DNA from: an uncultured virus (IMG/VR IMGVR_UViG_3300033155_000850)
Taxonomy: Duplodnaviria; Heunggongvirae; Uroviricota; Caudoviricetes
Length of the DNA: 20,000 nt
Virus record (IMG/VR): IMGVR_UViG_3300033155_000850
Direction: 5' to 3' (one strand)
In this document: in pieces, positions 2,613 to 20,000 of the stretch
Layout of the letters: each line of letters starts with the position of its first letter
How positions within the stretch are numbered: the stretch's first letter is position 1
Notes under the pieces: model-generated
The model's input: the letters and a program-made list of their open reading frames with translations, nothing else
What the model was told of the DNA's origin: nothing
Databases searched by the model: none
Made by a program: the position numbers and the translations under genes

Positions 2613-2636
2613 ACGGGGGCTTCGGCCCCCGTATTT
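2613..2636 (+). terminator. Intrinsic terminator or processing hairpin
   Basis: ACGGGGGC-TTCG-GCCCCCGT followed by a weak ATTT tail. Confidence 0.6.
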
Positions 2637-2640
2637 AACT

Positions 2641-2727
2641 GAAGTATTTTGATGGTAATCGGTTAGAGCCGCTGTACAGCATTAAAAAGTCGGGAGACGC
2701 TACTCCGATTACCTTCAAAAATACTTT
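2641..2727 (+). ncRNA. Candidate small structured RNA (long stem capped by a junction)
   Basis: GAAGTATTTTGATGGTAATCGG 2641-2662 pairs with CCGATTACCTTCAAAAATACTTT 2705-2727; inner hairpins GCTG-TA-CAGC and GTC-GGGA-GAC. Confidence 0.55.
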
Positions 2728-2729
2728 AA

Positions 2730-2851
2730 CGCGGGATGGCGGAATTGGTAGACGCGCCCAAAGATCTGGGTATAGTGTATAATCCGCGGATTATATGGTT
2801 TTTCTAGATAAAACAGCTATTTTGCAGGTTCAAGTCCTGCTCCCGCTACCA
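2730..2851 (+). tRNA. Non-canonical tRNA-Leu-like RNA (no assignable anticodon, 53-nt variable region)
   Basis: Acceptor GCGGGA/TCCCGC; D-arm TGGCGGAATTGGTAGACGC; T-arm GCAGG-TTCAAGT-CCTGC; discriminator A plus encoded CCA; anticodon arm reduced to CCCA-AAGATC-TGGG. Confidence 0.85.
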
Positions 2852-2864
2852 AATCGGGTGATGT

Positions 2865-3095
2865 ATGTGGACTAAAAAATCTTACGCTACTGCAGAAGAT
2901 AATCATAAGGCTGGTCGTTGGACAATTAGTAATGGCCATGTGGATTTTGATATACACCTAACAATAGACGGCTCTCATGGTACAGGCTACATAGTATCAC
3001 CAGCAGAAGCCGATGCTTATGCAGATCATATCTTACGTAAGCTAAACGAACAGGACTCAATCGAGTTTCGCCCAATACTGCCCCAGGACCTATAG
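2865..3095 (+). CDS. Phage hypothetical protein
   Basis: 76 aa ORF, GGTGA SD. Confidence 0.7.
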   Translation: MWTKKSYATAEDNHKAGRWTISNGHVDFDIHLTIDGSHGTGYIVSPAEADAYADHILRKLNEQDSIEFRPILPQDL

Positions 3096-6219: not shown

Positions 6220-6358
6220 GAATTTTCCTGCACGTAAACTACTTCGTCAAATGAACGCTAATCGTGATAGAAATGAACCGTACACTGATAAAGAAATCGA
6301 TAAATTAAATTCCGCACGAAATATTCGCACGAAAAAGTATCGCGGATCAAATAGATAA
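6209..6358 (+). CDS. Small basic protein, 49 aa (MKTKNFPARKLLRQ...RNIRTKKYRG)
   Basis: Manually translated; fills the gap. Confidence 0.6.
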   Translation: MKTKNFPARKLLRQMNANRDRNEPYTDKEIDKLNSARNIRTKKYRGSNR

Positions 6359-6388
6359 AGGACCTTTTGGACCTTTGGAGGTTTAGAC

Positions 6389-6583
6389 ATGGCATTACCG
6401 CAGTTAGGCACGTCGGTCAATATTGTTAAGGTTACTAGTAAGGGTCGTAAAATAATGTCGGTCCACCCTAACAAAGTTTCAGGTAAATTAGAAGGGTATT
6501 TAGATACTCTTAGATCTAAGTTTGAAATAGGCGAATGTAAGAGAAATAACATAGAGATCATACCTAAAGAGATTATTGATTGA
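6389..6583 (+). CDS. Phage hypothetical protein
   Basis: 64 aa, GGAGGT SD. Confidence 0.75.
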   Translation: MALPQLGTSVNIVKVTSKGRKIMSVHPNKVSGKLEGYLDTLRSKFEIGECKRNNIEIIPKEIID

Positions 6584-6590
6584 GAATTCT

Positions 6591-6620
6591 GTATACATTG
6601 CTGTTATTCTGGTATACAAT
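6591..6620 (+). promoter_or_regulatory. Early-type promoter GTATAC-N18-TACAAT
   Basis: Family match. Confidence 0.8.
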
Positions 6621-6666
6621 ATAGGTATGATTGGAGATTGTCTTCGGTCATTATGGGAGAACCGCC

Positions 6667-6837
6667 ATGAAATACGGAGTTGTATTGAAAGGAAAAATGA
6701 AACTTAAGACTAATGATTTACAAGAGGCTAGACGTAAATTAGAGGAATTAGGCGATACTGCCTTTATTTATTATGGAAAATCCGCCATTAAAAAGTATGA
6801 AACCACACACGTGCCCACTGTAGGAGAATCCGAATGA
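6667..6837 (+). CDS. Small hypothetical protein, 56 aa
   Basis: ATG 6667 with GGGAG SD inside ORF 6631-6837. Confidence 0.65.
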   Translation: MKYGVVLKGKMKLKTNDLQEARRKLEELGDTAFIYYGKSAIKKYETTHVPTVGESE

Positions 6838-7328
6838 CATACGGTGCATCGGATACATTAACTCTTATGATTGATCTCGGTAAACAACGGGCGTCAAAGA
6901 ATAAAGATATATTTGAAAACGGAGGTGAGCCGGAAGATTACTTGGATGATCAAGACTTTGCCATCCACGATCCTTGGAGATCATCTTGCGGACGTTTTGA
7001 AGTTGACCCATTTAAAGAATATGGTAAATCGTTCGTTGAATGGTTAATGAGACCGTTCTATACAGATAAAGAAAACATTACACGTCGTCTTAATGAGAAC
7101 AAACGTTCTCAAATACAGGTATTACGTCCTGTCGATGAATCAACTCATGTAATGACCATGAAAGACTGGTTAGAATCACTCGATCAGGGTGCATTTACTC
7201 CGGATGATGGATTCGGTCATTTCGCAAAAGAAGTTAATGGGATAATGAGCGAAGATACTAAAACCGATGTATGGAACGGTCCTTGTAGAGACGATTCATT
7301 CACTCACGTAGCATGGTATAATAAGTAA
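6834..7328 (+). CDS. Phage hypothetical protein, probably two fused modules
   Basis: 164 aa; AGGAG SD; C-terminal GAFTPDDGFG...THVAWYNK. Confidence 0.75.
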   Translation: MTYGASDTLTLMIDLGKQRASKNKDIFENGGEPEDYLDDQDFAIHDPWRSSCGRFEVDPFKEYGKSFVEWLMRPFYTDKENITRRLNENKRSQIQVLRPVDESTHVMTMKDWLESLDQGAFTPDDGFGHFAKEVNGIMSEDTKTDVWNGPCRDDSFTHVAWYNK

Positions 7329-7339
7329 AGGATACCGCC

Positions 7340-7966
7340 ATGGAATCAACCAAACTTACGTATAAAGATAGCGCTTCTTTTGTAAAGACTCTTATTGATA
7401 ATGATATTAGTTCTCTTAGTGATTATTATAAGTTGGAGTATCTAAGAATTGTAGGTAATTACACAGATGAATTAGGTGATAAGATTATAGCTAATAATCC
7501 CGATGCATTTAAAGAGCCTATTATCGGCGAAGATCGATCTGAATTTAGTGATGATGATTTAGACCTTAGTATTATGAGTGTCTTAGATAAGATATTCCCA
7601 GGTGCTAAAATAGTCCCTATAGATGAAGGTATTACAGCCATAATGCCGTCTATGAAACCAAGAAATTATGACGGTCCTATGAACCAACTGGATTTTGGTA
7701 GGTCAGGGAAATGTTTAACAGACGATGAAGCTTATATATGGTTACGTAATCGTAACTATCCCCATGAATATGATCACATCCATGTATATGAGTATGATCT
7801 TTGTCTTCTTTTACCGGATATAGAAAATTTAGAAGGACCTATAGACGATTCAGTCTTCTGGATCAAGTCGGATGGTGTTCGTGAAGAGGGTACTTTACAA
7901 AATGTATTAAGTAAAATGTTCGATGCTTATACCAATCATTATAACGAGGAAAAGCGTCGTGGATGA
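7340..7966 (+). CDS. Acidic phage hypothetical protein
   Basis: 208 aa; AAGGA SD. Confidence 0.8.
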   Translation: MESTKLTYKDSASFVKTLIDNDISSLSDYYKLEYLRIVGNYTDELGDKIIANNPDAFKEPIIGEDRSEFSDDDLDLSIMSVLDKIFPGAKIVPIDEGITAIMPSMKPRNYDGPMNQLDFGRSGKCLTDDEAYIWLRNRNYPHEYDHIHVYEYDLCLLLPDIENLEGPIDDSVFWIKSDGVREEGTLQNVLSKMFDAYTNHYNEEKRRG

Positions 7967-8066
7967 TTTACCTTTATTATTTATGGCTACGAATATTGTA
8001 TCAGCGGTATTTGTTATAGTTTTTATATCAGTGATACTTGTTAACCTTTTTAAAAGAAAACTATGA
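7959..8066 (+). CDS. Small membrane peptide, 35 aa
   Basis: GTG start with GAGGA SD; single TM then KRKL; ATGA overlap. Confidence 0.55.
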   Translation: MDDLPLLFMATNIVSAVFVIVFISVILVNLFKRKL

Positions 8067-8275
8067 AAATCAACATAACAATAGGCTTTCATCGTACCTT
8101 CAAAGGTAAAGACGGTACACCTGTAAAAATCATATTTACTGGGAGTACTAAACAGCATTATAAAGAGTTATTCGACCGCTACCAGTGGTTTCGTGTAACT
8201 CTTGGTATTCCATCTAATTTGAGTCGCCCTAAGATTTTGAATTGGGTTTTAATTCCAAGGCGAAAAATGCTATGA
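8063..8275 (+). CDS. Phage hypothetical protein
   Basis: 70 aa, overlap-coupled. Confidence 0.65.
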   Translation: MKINITIGFHRTFKGKDGTPVKIIFTGSTKQHYKELFDRYQWFRVTLGIPSNLSRPKILNWVLIPRRKML

Positions 8276-8496
8276 GTAGAGAATACGAATATGCAGAGTC
8301 TATAGAGAAAAAATTTATAGGCCATCTAAAATCATTGGGGTTTAATATACACAAACCGCCTTTTAAAATGAGTGTTAAACGTAAACTCTCTATACTAAAT
8401 TATCTTAGGACTATAAGTACTGCTTCAGACCTTCTACAGAATGCTGTAAATGATATTCCTATAGATACAAAGGATAGTTATGAGAACGGTACATAA
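8272..8496 (+). CDS. Phage hypothetical protein
   Basis: ATGA overlap start inside ORF 8242-8496. Confidence 0.65.
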   Translation: MSREYEYAESIEKKFIGHLKSLGFNIHKPPFKMSVKRKLSILNYLRTISTASDLLQNAVNDIPIDTKDSYENGT

Positions 8497-8755
8497 ACTA
8501 AAAATAGATTTTCAGGTAACGGACTATAAATTACCCAGGGACGCTACTGTAATCCAGTTTTGTAAAGACGGTATGAGTGATCTTTGTATATGGTATGTCT
8601 TTAATAGAAAATATCATCATATGGATGATTACGTTCACAGAAAATTTAGAATCTTCGGCACTAATCACGATATTCCAGATGGATATACGTTCGTCGGCAC
8701 AGCGATATGTGGTGAACTTGTGTGGCACTTATTTGAGGATGAAAGTAATGGCTGA
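8480..8755 (+). CDS. Conserved phage protein (DUF7352-like, recalled from memory)
   Basis: Pattern RKFRIFGTNHDIP...FVGTA...LVWHLFE; AAGGA SD. Confidence 0.7.
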   Translation: MRTVHKLKIDFQVTDYKLPRDATVIQFCKDGMSDLCIWYVFNRKYHHMDDYVHRKFRIFGTNHDIPDGYTFVGTAICGELVWHLFEDESNG

Positions 8756-9038
8756 AGTTGTGGCTCAGAAGTTTTGGGTTAAAATATCTAGTAAAGAGAT
8801 CGAAGCTATAGTTCGTGCTATAGTTCCAGATGAAATGTGTGACTTCGATTTAATCGAGGTCCAAACAACTATAAAAGATCATAAGGTAGATACTGTAACC
8901 TTAGGACTTAGTTATAATACACCTGTTAAAACTAAAAACATCACCGCATTTGGTGCTTGTCCAGAATGTGGAAGTCCAGATCCTAATGAAATACACTCTG
9001 GAGATTGCTCATATGGAAAGCCTGTTGATGATGAGTGA
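8748..9038 (+). CDS. Hypothetical protein with C-terminal CPEC...H...C metal finger
   Basis: ATG 8748 with GAGG SD inside ORF 8577-9038. Confidence 0.7.
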   Translation: MAEVVAQKFWVKISSKEIEAIVRAIVPDEMCDFDLIEVQTTIKDHKVDTVTLGLSYNTPVKTKNITAFGACPECGSPDPNEIHSGDCSYGKPVDDE

Positions 9039-9219
9039 TAAATTAAAGGAACAAATCGATAATATGACTCGTGAAGAAATGGCTCGTAAATGGCGGTTCG
9101 CACCGTCTGGTGATCCAATGCTTCAAAGTGAAACTGGAACTTATTTTCAAAAACGATTTAATTCACTCGGAGGATTTTCTCCGGCTATCAGTAAAAAGAT
9201 AGGTTGGGATGAATCATGA
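9031..9219 (+). CDS. Conserved-looking small phage protein
   Basis: IDNMTREEMARKWRFAPSGDP...ISKKIGW; start 9028 or 9031. Confidence 0.7.
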   Translation: MSDKLKEQIDNMTREEMARKWRFAPSGDPMLQSETGTYFQKRFNSLGGFSPAISKKIGWDES

Positions 9220-9578
9220 TTTACTCTACACCTATGGCAAACAAGATTCGGCCTAAAGTCATTAAAGATGCTATTAAGAGGTTCGATGATGACGGAAGGA
9301 CTGGACCTCATTCTACACAAGGTGCAATCTTGTGTCACATTCTTAACCACTGCCTCAAGAATGGAATCAGCTTTCAACTAAGCTATCTTGCAGGCGGAGG
9401 TTATGATTTGAAGAGAATGGACCTTTGCCATACATGTCACAAAATCATGGATACCGGTTTACTACAAGATACTAATTGTGGGGGCGACTGTACGGCCTGT
9501 ATGGCTGAAGCGGGTGATCCCGACTGTATTATTACAATGCAATCTGTATTGCTTCAAAAAAAGCTTACTGATTTATAG
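9216..9578 (+). CDS. Hypothetical protein with Cys-rich C-terminus
   Basis: CHTC...CGGDCTACMAEAGDPDC. Confidence 0.7.
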   Translation: MIYSTPMANKIRPKVIKDAIKRFDDDGRTGPHSTQGAILCHILNHCLKNGISFQLSYLAGGGYDLKRMDLCHTCHKIMDTGLLQDTNCGGDCTACMAEAGDPDCIITMQSVLLQKKLTDL

Positions 9579-9584
9579 AGGGTA

Positions 9585-9836
9585 GTGATAGTGAGTGAAA
9601 TACAGTACATAGAAAACGGAGTTAGTAATAGAAAATGGAATAGCTTAGAGGCTTGTATAGGCGACCTTTTAGAACCTTATGCCGAACCTAATACTGGTGA
9701 TCTGGAGTATATGAGAGAGCAGATCTCCCACATTAAAGGGTGTCTAGCTAGATTTATAGCTGATCAAAATCCAAGTATGGATACTCTAACTAGAGTATTC
9801 TATGCGGATATAAATATTGTAGAAACGGACGATTAA
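9585..9836 (+). CDS. Phage hypothetical protein
   Basis: 83 aa, GTG start with GAGG SD. Confidence 0.65.
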   Translation: MIVSEIQYIENGVSNRKWNSLEACIGDLLEPYAEPNTGDLEYMREQISHIKGCLARFIADQNPSMDTLTRVFYADINIVETDD

Positions 9837-9848
9837 AGAGGAAATATA

Positions 9849-10199
9849 ATGAGATCACAAATAGGTATAGCAGATTCAATAATGGATGTGTTAGTTAAAA
9901 TGGCAGAAGGTAATCCAGGTGCCGTTACAGTAATGACTCAAATTTTAAAGACTAGACAAGAAGACGGTCCGGCCATTATCTCCGCTTTAAATGACATGAA
10001 TATTCGTGGATCGCAGATATGGGTCGGTTTTAAAGATCACTGCAATTCGAACATAGATAGATTTATCAAAGCCATTAATGAGCGCGACCCAACCATGGTT
10101 AATACGATAAATGAAGAATGCTATAACCTTAAGATGGTGGAACAAGGTTATAAGGGTTATGATGAACTTGCTACAACACACGGACCGTCAATGTATTAG
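9849..10199 (+). CDS. Conserved phage hypothetical protein (EGNPGA motif)
   Basis: MAEGNPGA...IRGSQIWVGFKDHC; GAGG SD. Confidence 0.8.
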   Translation: MRSQIGIADSIMDVLVKMAEGNPGAVTVMTQILKTRQEDGPAIISALNDMNIRGSQIWVGFKDHCNSNIDRFIKAINERDPTMVNTINEECYNLKMVEQGYKGYDELATTHGPSMY

Positions 10200-10383
10200 G
10201 ACCTTTGGACTTATGTCCGTAGGACCTTTAGGCTTATCACCACCGGACTCATGGCGGAGTCGGCACGAAAGTAAAGAGTGAATAGAATGAGAAATATACA
10301 TAAAAAGGGATAACCATGACGAGGTGTATAAACCCATGACATCATGACGCCCGTTCACCTATAAGCTCAAGTGCCGTAGTTTG

Positions 10384-10413
10384 GAGGCCGCTTTAATTAG
10401 CGGCCTCTTTTTT
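10384..10413 (+). terminator. Intrinsic terminator
   Basis: GAGGCCGCT-TTAATT-AGCGGCCTC-TTTTTT. Confidence 0.85.
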
Positions 10414-10436
10414 CAGGATACACCGTTGATGAGAGA

Positions 10437-10464
10437 GACCAACCCGGTTCAGCAGTGCTTGCGA
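10437..10464 (+). repeat. 28-bp direct repeat, copy 1 (GACCAACCCGGTTCAGCAGTGCTTGCGA)
   Basis: Identical to 11062-11089. Confidence 0.9.
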
Positions 10465-10486
10465 CAGTGTCTTATATAAAGATTCA

Positions 10487-10516
10487 GTATACATTGTTGA
10501 TTATCTATGGTATAAT
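10487..10516 (+). promoter_or_regulatory. Early-type promoter GTATAC-N18-TATAAT with extended -10 TG
   Basis: Family match. Confidence 0.85.
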
Positions 10517-10568
10517 GGACTAATGGCCAGAAATAATTCTACGCCATCAATCAAAAAGGACACACGCT

Positions 10569-10787
10569 ATGAGGTCAGCAGGACAAATTGATATTAACAT
10601 CAATATCCAACTGGAAGTGGACGTTAATAATGATGACATTATTAGTGTTCTCGCCGCAGATGGCCAAGTGTTATTTGAGGCTGATGTAATGAGTGACATT
10701 GAATCAGGATTAGAACGTCTTGTCAATAAAGCTCTTGAAGGTTGCCCTGAGGGTAGCTTGGCACCAAATAAGATAGTAATTGTATGA
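10569..10787 (+). CDS. Small acidic hypothetical protein
   Basis: 72 aa, AAGGA SD. Confidence 0.7.
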   Translation: MRSAGQIDININIQLEVDVNNDDIISVLAADGQVLFEADVMSDIESGLERLVNKALEGCPEGSLAPNKIVIV

Positions 10788-13259: not shown

Positions 13260-13586
13260 ATGTCTGATACTCTTAATGGAATGCGTCACTGCGACGAATT
13301 CATCGATGACTATGAAGCACCTAACTGCCTACGTTGGTTCTTACTCATCAATCGATTGCCCGCCATCGAGAAAATGCTGGCCGCTGAAATGGGCGTCAAT
13401 CCAAAGCTCTTTGCAGATGTAATCAAGCCGAACAATCAAGGCCGCACACAAAGAGTGCGTGTTGTAATGGCTTCAAGATTCGGCGATGTAGGAATATCCA
13501 TTAACCTACATCGTGAACACGGTTATTCTAAAAGAGTCGCCGTCGAAGAACTCACTAACTTCAGAAATACATTGGAACATGATTAG
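13260..13586 (+). CDS. Conserved-looking phage hypothetical protein
   Basis: ATG 13260 with AAGGA SD; RVRVVMASRFGDVGI motif. Confidence 0.75.
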   Translation: MSDTLNGMRHCDEFIDDYEAPNCLRWFLLINRLPAIEKMLAAEMGVNPKLFADVIKPNNQGRTQRVRVVMASRFGDVGISINLHREHGYSKRVAVEELTNFRNTLEHD

Positions 13587-16904: not shown

Positions 16905-17199
16905 ATGTTCCTTATACTCAGTTGTTATAAGAGAATCGTAGGACCTTCGGGCCGTCACGCCCCTCAGAGGGGGGACTATGGGGGGTAGGACCTTCGGGCC
17001 GCTCCTCCTCCTCGAGGGGGGACTATGGGGGGTAGGACCTTTCGGACCTTCGGCCTGCCGCGTGATGGTCCCCACAGGGACGGCTGAACCGGGCTGCTTT
17101 TTAGTAATGATGGACCTTCGGGCTGGTAGGACCTTCGGGCCGAAGGACCTTTTTAGGACCTTCGGGCCTCCCCCCGGGGCGCCCCCAATCATATCCGAC

Positions 17200-19880: not shown

Positions 19881-19886
19881 GCCTCT

Positions 19887-20000
19887 CGACCAGCGCCTCC
19901 CGACCAGCGCCTCCCGACCAGCGCCTCCCGACCAGCGCCTCCCGACCAGCGCCTCCCGACCAGCGCCTCCCGACCAGCGCCTCCCGACCAGCGCCTCCCG
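19887..20000. repeat. Perfect 14-bp tandem repeat (CGACCAGCGCCTCC)n, at least 8 copies
   Basis: 8 exact units plus 2 nt, running off the window. Confidence 0.95.

Follow-up and report, generated by a model that had tools for sequence, protein, structure and literature searches.

A tRNA-Leu-like RNA gene without an anticodon arm in an uncultured tailed phage, and the class of phage genes to which it belongs

What might a phage do with the frame of a leucine tRNA from which the decoding part is gone? The question is raised by a locus in the IMG/VR virus record IMGVR_UViG_3300033155_000850, of which a stretch of 20,000 nucleotides (nt), here called the window, was analyzed. Positions 2730–2851 of its plus strand, read directly, form a 122-nt RNA resembling a class II transfer RNA (tRNA), in which only the middle is abnormal. 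We lean, if not by much, toward the view that this element is a functional, non-decoding scaffold RNA derived from tRNA-Leu, with tRNA-like processing, possibly leucylated, and carrying a lineage-specific module. Its parts are as follows, in window coordinates.

2730–2736, plus strand: 5′ strand of the acceptor stem, CGCGGGA, pairing with 2841–2847; pair 1:72 is flagged as non-standard in the family-model alignment.
2737–2738, plus strand: U8 and G9.
2739–2755, plus strand: Leu-type D arm, GCG, an 11-nt loop GAATTGGTAGA, and CGC; invariant in the 31-sequence alignment described below, partly because the search pattern fixed it.
2757–2770, plus strand: stub hairpin CCCA-AAGATC-TGGG, 14 nt with a stem of 4 base pairs (bp) and a 6-nt loop, without an anticodon, in the place of the 17-nt anticodon arm.
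2771–2823, plus strand: 53-nt insert replacing the variable arm; its last base, T2823, is U48.
2772–2776 with 2816–2820, plus strand: closing helix of the insert, ATAGT with GCTAT.
2778–2795, plus strand: palindrome hairpin TATAATCCGCGGATTATA, a perfect 18-nt palindrome (inverted repeat I6).
2798–2814, plus strand: second hairpin, GTTTT-TCTAGAT-AAAAC, 5-bp stem and 7-nt loop UCUAGAU.
2824–2840, plus strand: T arm, GCAGG, loop TTCAAGT, CCTGC.
2841–2851, plus strand: 3′ strand of the acceptor, TCCCGCT (2841–2847), discriminator A73 (A2848), and encoded CCA (2849–2851).
2764–2770 with 2803–2809, plus strand: alternative pairing of ATCTGGG with TCTAGAT around the palindrome hairpin, competing with the stub and the second hairpin.

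Set against a canonical tRNA-Leu, the element has a Leu-type D arm, a T arm, and all of the elbow nucleotides, and the D-arm region (element positions 6 to 28, 23/23 bases) is 100% identical to annotated tRNA-Leu genes, with a match in 5426/5426 E. coli genomes. Among the bases used for tertiary contacts and identity, A73, U8, A14, A15, G18, G19, and U48 are kept, as is the CCA end. The acceptor has six of its seven pairs in Watson-Crick form (2731–2736 with 2841–2846), with C2730 unpaired opposite T2847, a C1xU72 mismatch. The departure lies in the middle, which is 68 nt long (G2756 and 67 further bases before the T arm); after position 26, there is no 5-bp stem with a 7-nt loop holding U33 and a Leu anticodon. 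A preliminary description of this DNA had reported the same anatomy (Leu-type acceptor, D, and T arms, A73, CCA, a 14-nt stub, a 53-nt variable region, and a C:U mismatch), and each part lies where it was placed. That description also called the element a non-decoding mimic, which is apt: the anticodon region has been replaced, and lacking an anticodon arm, the RNA cannot read codons in the normal way.

This layout recurs in other phages. Viral contigs were scanned with GGAATTGGTAGACGC-N55-85-GGTTCAAGTCC, that is, with the D-arm and T-loop motifs of the window separated by an enlarged gap. The pattern was found at 38 loci, representing 26 distinct sequences, with non-anticodon middles in the range of 50 to 75 nt (52 to 75 nt in the 26 viral members). 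In all 26, the 7-nt 5′ strand pairs with the 3′ strand that follows the T arm, and a filter for such pairing removed none. An alignment of 31 sequences was then assembled from these 26, a second copy in one of the contigs (L034), 3 metagenomic relatives, and the window. The stems are paired in 99.1% of the cells of this alignment, compared to 35 to 38% when the partner strand is slid by 1 to 3 columns as a control. Changes on both sides of a pair are found in 7/7 acceptor pairs and 3/5 T-stem pairs, values reached by 0/500 shuffles. The discriminator is A in 30/31 aligned sequences, and U48, the last base of the middle and the partner of A15, is T in 26/27 sequences (25/26 viral members and the window) at a position outside the search pattern. 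The frame of the class is under selection, and its decoding half is gone. The acceptor and T stems of the class covary; for the window's own middle, whose extra arms the preliminary description proposed to check by covariation, no homologue was found in the collections searched.

Lengths separate the class from ordinary tRNAs. The same motifs with a 25- to 54-nt gap occur at no fewer than 120 loci in viral contigs, and all of the 120 listed are tRNA-Leu genes by ARAGORN, with Leu anticodons (UAG in 102, UAA in 12, CAA in 3, CAG in 2, and AAG in 1). The gap, measured to the GG of the T stem, is 33 to 38 nt in 120/120 of these, compared to a 68-nt middle in the window; no gap of 39 to 54 nt is found among the 120 normal-length matches listed. 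Among the matches listed, lengths therefore form two groups with nothing between them.

Standard tools see little of this. ARAGORN calls no tRNA and no transfer-messenger RNA (tmRNA) anywhere in the window, in keeping with the earlier expectation that tRNA finders would return an undetermined or pseudogene result, and no Rfam family matches the window at gathering level; the Rfam tRNA model gives a partial match to the element of 13.4 bits against a gathering score of 29. Across the class, ARAGORN made no call over the element in 23/23 family loci run (the 26 distinct sequences minus three near-duplicates). The Rfam tRNA model reached its gathering score over the main element in 17/24 family loci, in each case with a large insertion at the anticodon region, and in the same 24 loci the middles matched no Rfam family other than tRNA at E values up to 0.5 to 1. 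Because the class is invisible to standard tRNA finders, it is absent from phage annotations. By comparison, a covariance model (R1) built from 30 class members, with the window left out, matches 2730–2848 over its full length (model positions 1 to 109) at 72.7 bits, with an E value of about 9e-20. The next best match in the 20-kb window scores 9.1 bits, and a genuine T4 tRNA-Leu scores 41.7 bits. The sequence features of the element are far beyond chance.

The window shares with the class the Leu-type D and T arms, a paired acceptor, A73, the order of a tRNA with free ends, a 68-nt middle that has no canonical anticodon arm and ends in U48, and a location in a phage genome. It differs in its encoded CCA, found in only 1/26 other viral members (L049), and in being a single-copy gene rather than part of an array. 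A full-text literature search found no paper describing the class (loci L028 to L065, L077, L078, and L083). PMC10690425 speaks of "tRNA-like" candidates in general terms only, and the D-arm string is absent from its supplementary files, leaving aside files 1, 2, and 4. We consider this a class of predicted Leu-type look-alike RNAs that is widespread in phages and uncatalogued.

The class is restricted to phages. In one genome each of 185,579 species, the enlarged-gap pattern was found at 9 loci, compared to 38 in viral contigs. By eye, 3 of the 9 are true members, and these lie on short contigs of a Lutibacter metagenome-assembled genome (MAG), a Paraprevotella assembly, and a Bacteroides MAG, all Bacteroidota; the other 6 comprise ordinary tRNA-Leu genes that happen to have a match downstream, 5′ fragments in duplicate, or sequences whose acceptor is unpaired. 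The window itself overlaps a 33-kb virus record (G001, 59% complete by CheckV) with 100% identity from window position 13342 on, and the two are the same virus. Outside the overlap, G001 has genes for terminase, portal, scaffold, major head, adaptor, tail terminator, minor tail, and tape-measure proteins, marking this virus as a tailed phage.

Within the class, one kind of frame goes with many kinds of middle, here called cargo. Of the 57 pairs of members with the same acceptor 5′ strand, 50 have a cargo identity below 0.6, with a median over all pairs of 0.52; the window's middle has a best cargo identity of 0.58 to any member, against this background median of 0.52. The converse is also seen. 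L044 and L049 share 97% of their cargo and only 2/7 acceptor positions, and L029 and L060 share 92% and 4/7. A 187-kb virus record (L070, from G005) has at least six genes of the class within 3 kb, with acceptors AGTCAGG or AGTCAAG and six different middles. From these comparisons, acceptor and middle appear to be exchanged between genes, and recombination could use the identical D and T arms as handles for exchange of the middle. No protein family recurs among the genes beside the four members whose neighborhoods were compared. Of the roles offered in the preliminary description, that of a scaffold displaying extra helices best fits unrelated middles on one scaffold and the exchange of both; the decoy and the non-ribosomal Leu donor also offered there are conjectural.

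Other unusual tRNA-like genes lie near members of the class. The minus strand of L070 holds a cluster of look-alikes at 6300–10650, including one of 199 nt and another whose D loop holds an insertion, and in the same cluster ARAGORN calls "tRNA-???" genes with 2-base and 4-base anticodons as well as a CTA (amber-reading) tRNA. Adjoining members of the class at L028 317–386, L030 205–275, L034 640–716, and L040 570–642 are ARAGORN tRNAs with two-base "anticodons" and 6-nt loops, which score 40 to 53 bits on the Rfam tRNA model. These form a second type of tRNA, apparently non-decoding, in the same phages.

How might such an RNA work? Most probably, the gene would be transcribed within a plus-strand early or accessory operon. 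The tRNA-like frame would direct host RNase P to the 5′ end and trimming or the CCA enzyme to the 3′ end, and the product would be stable. Since the frame carries every known element recognized by bacterial leucyl-tRNA synthetase (LeuRS), the RNA may be leucylated. As the RNA has no anticodon arm with which to read codons, its specific activity would reside in the displayed module or in the occupation of a tRNA-binding factor. A passage in PMC2377443 gives the identity of E. coli tRNA-Leu as A73 together with the tertiary pairs U8-A14, A15-U48, and G18-U55 and a pair of G19 (printed as G19-U56); it also reports that Aquifex tRNA-Leu lacking the whole anticodon stem-loop lost only 2.5-fold in affinity and that the anticodon arm mattered for editing. 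On its sequence, then, the element is plausibly chargeable by LeuRS. Larkin et al., in 2002, reportedly reached similar conclusions for E. coli. A mismatch of the C1xU72 type would weaken binding to EF-Tu, as is known from initiator tRNA, and such weakening would fit a non-ribosomal life for this RNA, by analogy and from a single observation.

The frame can be traced to ordinary tRNAs. Metagenomes were scanned with the 5′ 25 nt of the window, and the 11 loci found were read by eye; none has the window's middle. Six of the 11 are ordinary tRNA-Leu(CAA) genes that share GCGGGA, the following TG, and the D arm, five of them with G1-U72. Four of those five (L073, L079, L081, and L082) have the same 3′ end, TCCCGCTACCA, as the window; L080 has TCCCGCTA but no CCA. 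Given the acceptor, D arm, and 3′ end held in common, the window's frame descends from a tRNA-Leu(CAA)-like lineage. Three further loci are relatives without an anticodon: L077 (33-nt middle, C1-G72), L078 (33-nt middle, U1-A72), and L083 (119-nt middle, A1-U72). Among the relatives of the window, pair 1:72 varies, and a single change separates C1xU72 from several of them. The remaining two loci, L075 and L076, are tRNA-Leu genes with the window's 5′ half and intron-like insertions in the anticodon loop of more than 60 nt and more than 140 nt; in L075, a second copy of the 5′ half follows.

The second hairpin of the insert may hold a further trace. Its loop, UCUAGAU, agrees at 5/7 positions with the anticodon loop of phage tRNA-Leu(UAG), UUUAGGU, with C for U33 and A for G37. 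Among hairpins of the family with 7-nt loops, 10/27 have a Leu triplet in the loop, two of the 10 being near-duplicates; shuffles gave 4.2 ± 2.0, and 10 or more were reached in 3/300 shuffles. In our reading, these triplets are left over from ancestry and do not work as anticodons, and the hairpin at 2798–2814 is possibly a relic anticodon arm. A separate pattern built on the T arm and acceptor was found at 19 viral loci, all with a CAT anticodon by eye and none enlarged. One such CAT-anticodon tRNA, on a viral contig (L010), has the window's acceptor including C1xU72, the whole T arm, and the 3′ end; outside the tRNA, the two sequences are dissimilar.

Descent from a tRNA-Leu is also the starting point of the most serious competing explanation, that the element is a decaying tRNA-Leu pseudogene whose anticodon arm lost 3 nt, whose variable arm gained about 40 nt, and whose RNA has no function. 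We consider this unlikely, though it deserves a careful hearing, and much of what weighs against a functional scaffold would be at home here. The insert is a singleton. The middle has no relative among the viral contigs, metagenome contigs, and phage genomes searched; an exact 33-nt pattern spanning the D arm and stub is present in 0 viral contigs, and blastn against 50,697 phage records, run with the element region and with the whole window, yielded no hit. The neighboring proteins (184 and 145 amino acids [aa]) have no relatives in viral contigs, nor are there syntenic relatives. Selection is therefore seen on the frame of the class and not on this copy. Pair 1:72 is paired in 29/31 family sequences, while the window has the C1xU72 mismatch, and its acceptor is of the type xGCGGGA, whereas the commonest type in the class is AGTCAGG. 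The stub has a loop of only 6 nt. The two changes in the UCUAGAU loop, including the loss of U33, are the expected outcome of decay. The identity of D arm and T loop within the class is partly imposed by the search pattern, and R1 is dominated by the tRNA-Leu core, such that a recently disabled tRNA-Leu would score well too. Finally, neither a canonical tRNA nor a further copy of the element occurs in the 46.7 kb known of this phage, and the phage thus shows no investment in tRNA biology.

The fold of the middle is ambiguous. The unconstrained minimum-energy fold of the 122 nt breaks the D arm; tRNAs often lose the D arm in folds of this kind. With the tRNA core held fixed, the three-hairpin fold has an energy of −37.1 to −37.6 kcal/mol, compared to −38.3 kcal/mol for the fold with the alternative pairing of 2764–2770 with 2803–2809. 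That arrangement is the minimum-energy fold of the isolated middle as well as of the core-constrained element, and the stub at 2757–2770 is seen among suboptimal folds of the latter. The two are about equally stable, and the palindrome hairpin alone is common to both. The isolated middle is modestly more stable than shuffled sequences (z score of −1.9; 6/200 shuffles equally good). To say that the insert folds cleanly, as was first proposed, is too strong in the light of the alternative fold and the z score, although the helices named do exist at their coordinates. With an ambiguous fold, a weak gain over shuffles, and an insert that has no homologue, the order of the insert, which the preliminary description took as an argument against decay, does not by itself provide one. 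H-type pseudoknots in the middles were also considered and set aside as a general feature; they looked convincing in L029, L034b, and L037, and a crude shuffle score, which covered 10/31 sequences, gave a z of about 0 for the window.

What speaks against decay lies elsewhere. The frame is undamaged, with the D-arm region matching at 23/23, a perfect T arm, six of seven acceptor pairs, and A73, CCA, and U48 kept. No fewer than 26 distinct phage sequences show the same design, and their stems covary; intermediate lengths are missing among the 120 normal-length matches listed. The gene is also tightly set between a structured hairpin and the next open reading frame (ORF) in a compact phage genome.

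A second explanation would accept that the class is functional and give it a different purpose, counter-defense: the RNA would be a tRNA-Leu-shaped decoy or inhibitor directed against class II tRNA nucleases, or a sponge for enzymes that modify 3′ ends. The fast-changing middle would be aimed at nucleases that attack the variable arm or anticodon region, and an RNA that does not decode would be harmless to translation. PMC13096335 describes defenses that cut the variable loop of class II tRNA-Tyr, namely Septu and retron-Eco7, and a phage tRNA is proposed there as a "decoy or supplement." On this view, an arms race would have left its mark in the diverse middles and the swapped frames. We regard this as doubtful, and prefer the less committed scaffold reading.

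The surroundings of the gene bring in a further possibility, for which three neighboring features are needed.

2613–2632, plus strand: GC-rich hairpin ACGGGGGC-TTCG-GCCCCCGT (inverted repeat I7), after the ORF at 2008–2562, with a T tract too weak to pass the terminator scan.
2640–2728, plus strand: 89-nt, nearly perfect hairpin with an outer stem of about 22 bp (inverted repeats I1 and I4); 1 nt separates its end from the element.
2865–3095, plus strand: next ORF (76 aa), which matches no family and whose start is 14 nt beyond the CCA.

The element and a series of small ORFs that match no family share the coding strand; 23 window ORFs (every coding-strand ORF of 100 aa or more and 4 shorter ones) gave no Pfam match except for one weak coiled-coil. 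The 89-nt hairpin is more stable than 200/200 shuffles (z score of −5.24), lacks tRNA features, and matches no Rfam family; possibly it is a site of RNase III-type processing or a small RNA in its own right. No terminators were found in the window, and one promoter-like site was found (2749–2776), where 1.2 are expected by chance. With no promoter- or terminator-like site beyond chance, the RNA is probably cut from a longer transcript. The middle is also an unlikely antisense RNA for this stretch, with complementarity elsewhere in the window of at most 11 nt.

Such a setting would suit "tRNA punctuation" in cis, in which the element, together with the hairpin at 2640–2728, would do nothing but mark the polycistronic early transcript for cutting by host RNases between the ORFs at 2008–2562 and 2865–3095, and the RNA set free would have no role of its own. 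It is on the same strand as all neighboring ORFs, its 3′ end is 14 nt from the next start codon, the 89-nt hairpin abuts its 5′ end, and upstream promoter- and terminator-like sites do not exceed chance. We find this improbable as the whole story, since RNase P needs little beyond an acceptor/T minihelix and the elbow; the conservation of A73, U48, and the D arm would go unexplained, as would arrays of six such genes in one phage, and the large, diverse, and exchanged middles would have no reason.

A role at the DNA level, either as an attachment site that copies the 3′ end of a host tRNA or as a promoter or operator within the palindrome, is very improbable. The 3′ 29 nt (2824–2852) are 100% identical to tRNA genes, with CAT anticodons by eye, in other viral contigs; the palindrome TATAATCCGCGGATTATA has TATAAT on both strands; and one promoter-like site lies at 2749–2776. 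An attachment site, however, needs no full 5′ half pairing with the 3′ half, the window has no ORF longer than 208 aa and hence no integrase, the promoter count is at chance level, and the palindrome occurs only once in the window. Least credible of all is a working, if unusual, tRNA-Leu that uses the hairpin at 2798–2814 as its UAG anticodon arm or has its middle partly removed: this hairpin does have a canonical 5-bp stem, a 7-nt loop, and a Leu triplet, as do an excess of the family loops noted above, but it has C instead of U at loop position 33 and, lying after the stub at the position of the variable arm, is misplaced and out of order for a decoding site, the 6-nt stub loop cannot be lengthened by removal of any single segment, ARAGORN and Rfam reject the element, and bacterial tRNA splicing is not known outside group I introns of more than 200 nt.

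Returning to the scaffold reading, the element can be set beside known RNAs. With class II tRNA-Leu (RF00005) it has in common an acceptor stem, here with six of the seven pairs, together with U8, U48, a T arm, a Leu-type D arm, A73, and CCA, and it differs in having no canonical anticodon arm, a 68-nt middle, and C1xU72. A tRNA-like Y RNA, YrlA (RF02553), is described in Chen et al. 2014 (PMC4201824). Both YrlA and the window's element mimic a tRNA, with D and T arms but no anticodon; YrlA is permuted (T arm, closed acceptor, D arm), has a Ro60-binding helix built from the ends of the RNA, and has no free acceptor end, whereas the element has tRNA order, free ends, and CCA. No match to YrlA was found in the window even at E values up to 10. 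A link to Ro60 was considered and rejected: there is no TROVE domain in 5/5 family virus records or among the Pfam results for the 23 window ORFs. YrlA-type modules are found in other phages. In Caulobacter phage CcrColossus (L067, 1491–1604), an unannotated, permuted YrlA-type module lies upstream of a TROVE/Ro60-like gene and has a D arm, TGGCGGAATTGGTAGACGC, identical to that of the window; in Brevundimonas phage Kabachok (L066, 1509–1620), such a module, with a D arm one base off, lies upstream of a "hypothetical protein" ORF. The TROVE gene is annotated only in CcrColossus, and the Kabachok ORF sits in the same position. Further upstream are additional YrlA matches below threshold.

The nearest precedent in kind is the pair of T4 RNAs known as "species 1" and "species 2" (rnaC and rnaD), which are stable, 119 to 139 nt long, annotated beside tRNA genes, and without an assigned function. 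Like the element, rnaC has a T arm and an acceptor-like 3′ end; neither RNA has a Leu-type D arm. R1 gives a weak score of 19.3 bits for rnaC and no match for rnaD. In tmRNA, too, an acceptor/T domain is joined to a large structured part other than an anticodon arm, and the RNA is charged without an anticodon. The element differs in that its pair 3:70 is C:G and not the G:U of alanine identity, it has a full D arm, and it is 122 nt long compared to about 350. Identification as tmRNA was rejected, with no match by ARAGORN or Rfam; no tag reading frame was identified, though none was sought systematically. The window's element is thus one more, somewhat atypical, member of the class of tRNA mimics described above.

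Elsewhere in the window, tandem repeats were seen at 19881–20000 (14-nt unit GCCTCCCGACCAGC, 8.6 copies, running off the window end, with related repeats just beyond in G001) and, in a GC-rich stretch, at 16938–17041 (47-nt unit, 2.2 copies) and 17112–17151 (17-nt unit, 2.4 copies).

The usual explanations for tRNA genes in phages are codon usage and the replacement of tRNAs destroyed by host defenses. The class described here keeps all that is needed for recognition as a tRNA, for processing, and probably for charging, yet it gave up decoding. For the phage studied here, 2730–2851 is best annotated as a gene for a tRNA-Leu-like non-coding RNA, neither a tRNA nor empty spacer. If expressed, RNAs of this class would parallel, in nature, the engineered "tRNA scaffold" with which foreign RNAs are produced in bacteria, and their variable modules would represent a pool of unexplored RNA activities. 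If charged with leucine, they would constitute a new kind of non-ribosomal aminoacyl carrier or a sponge for LeuRS.

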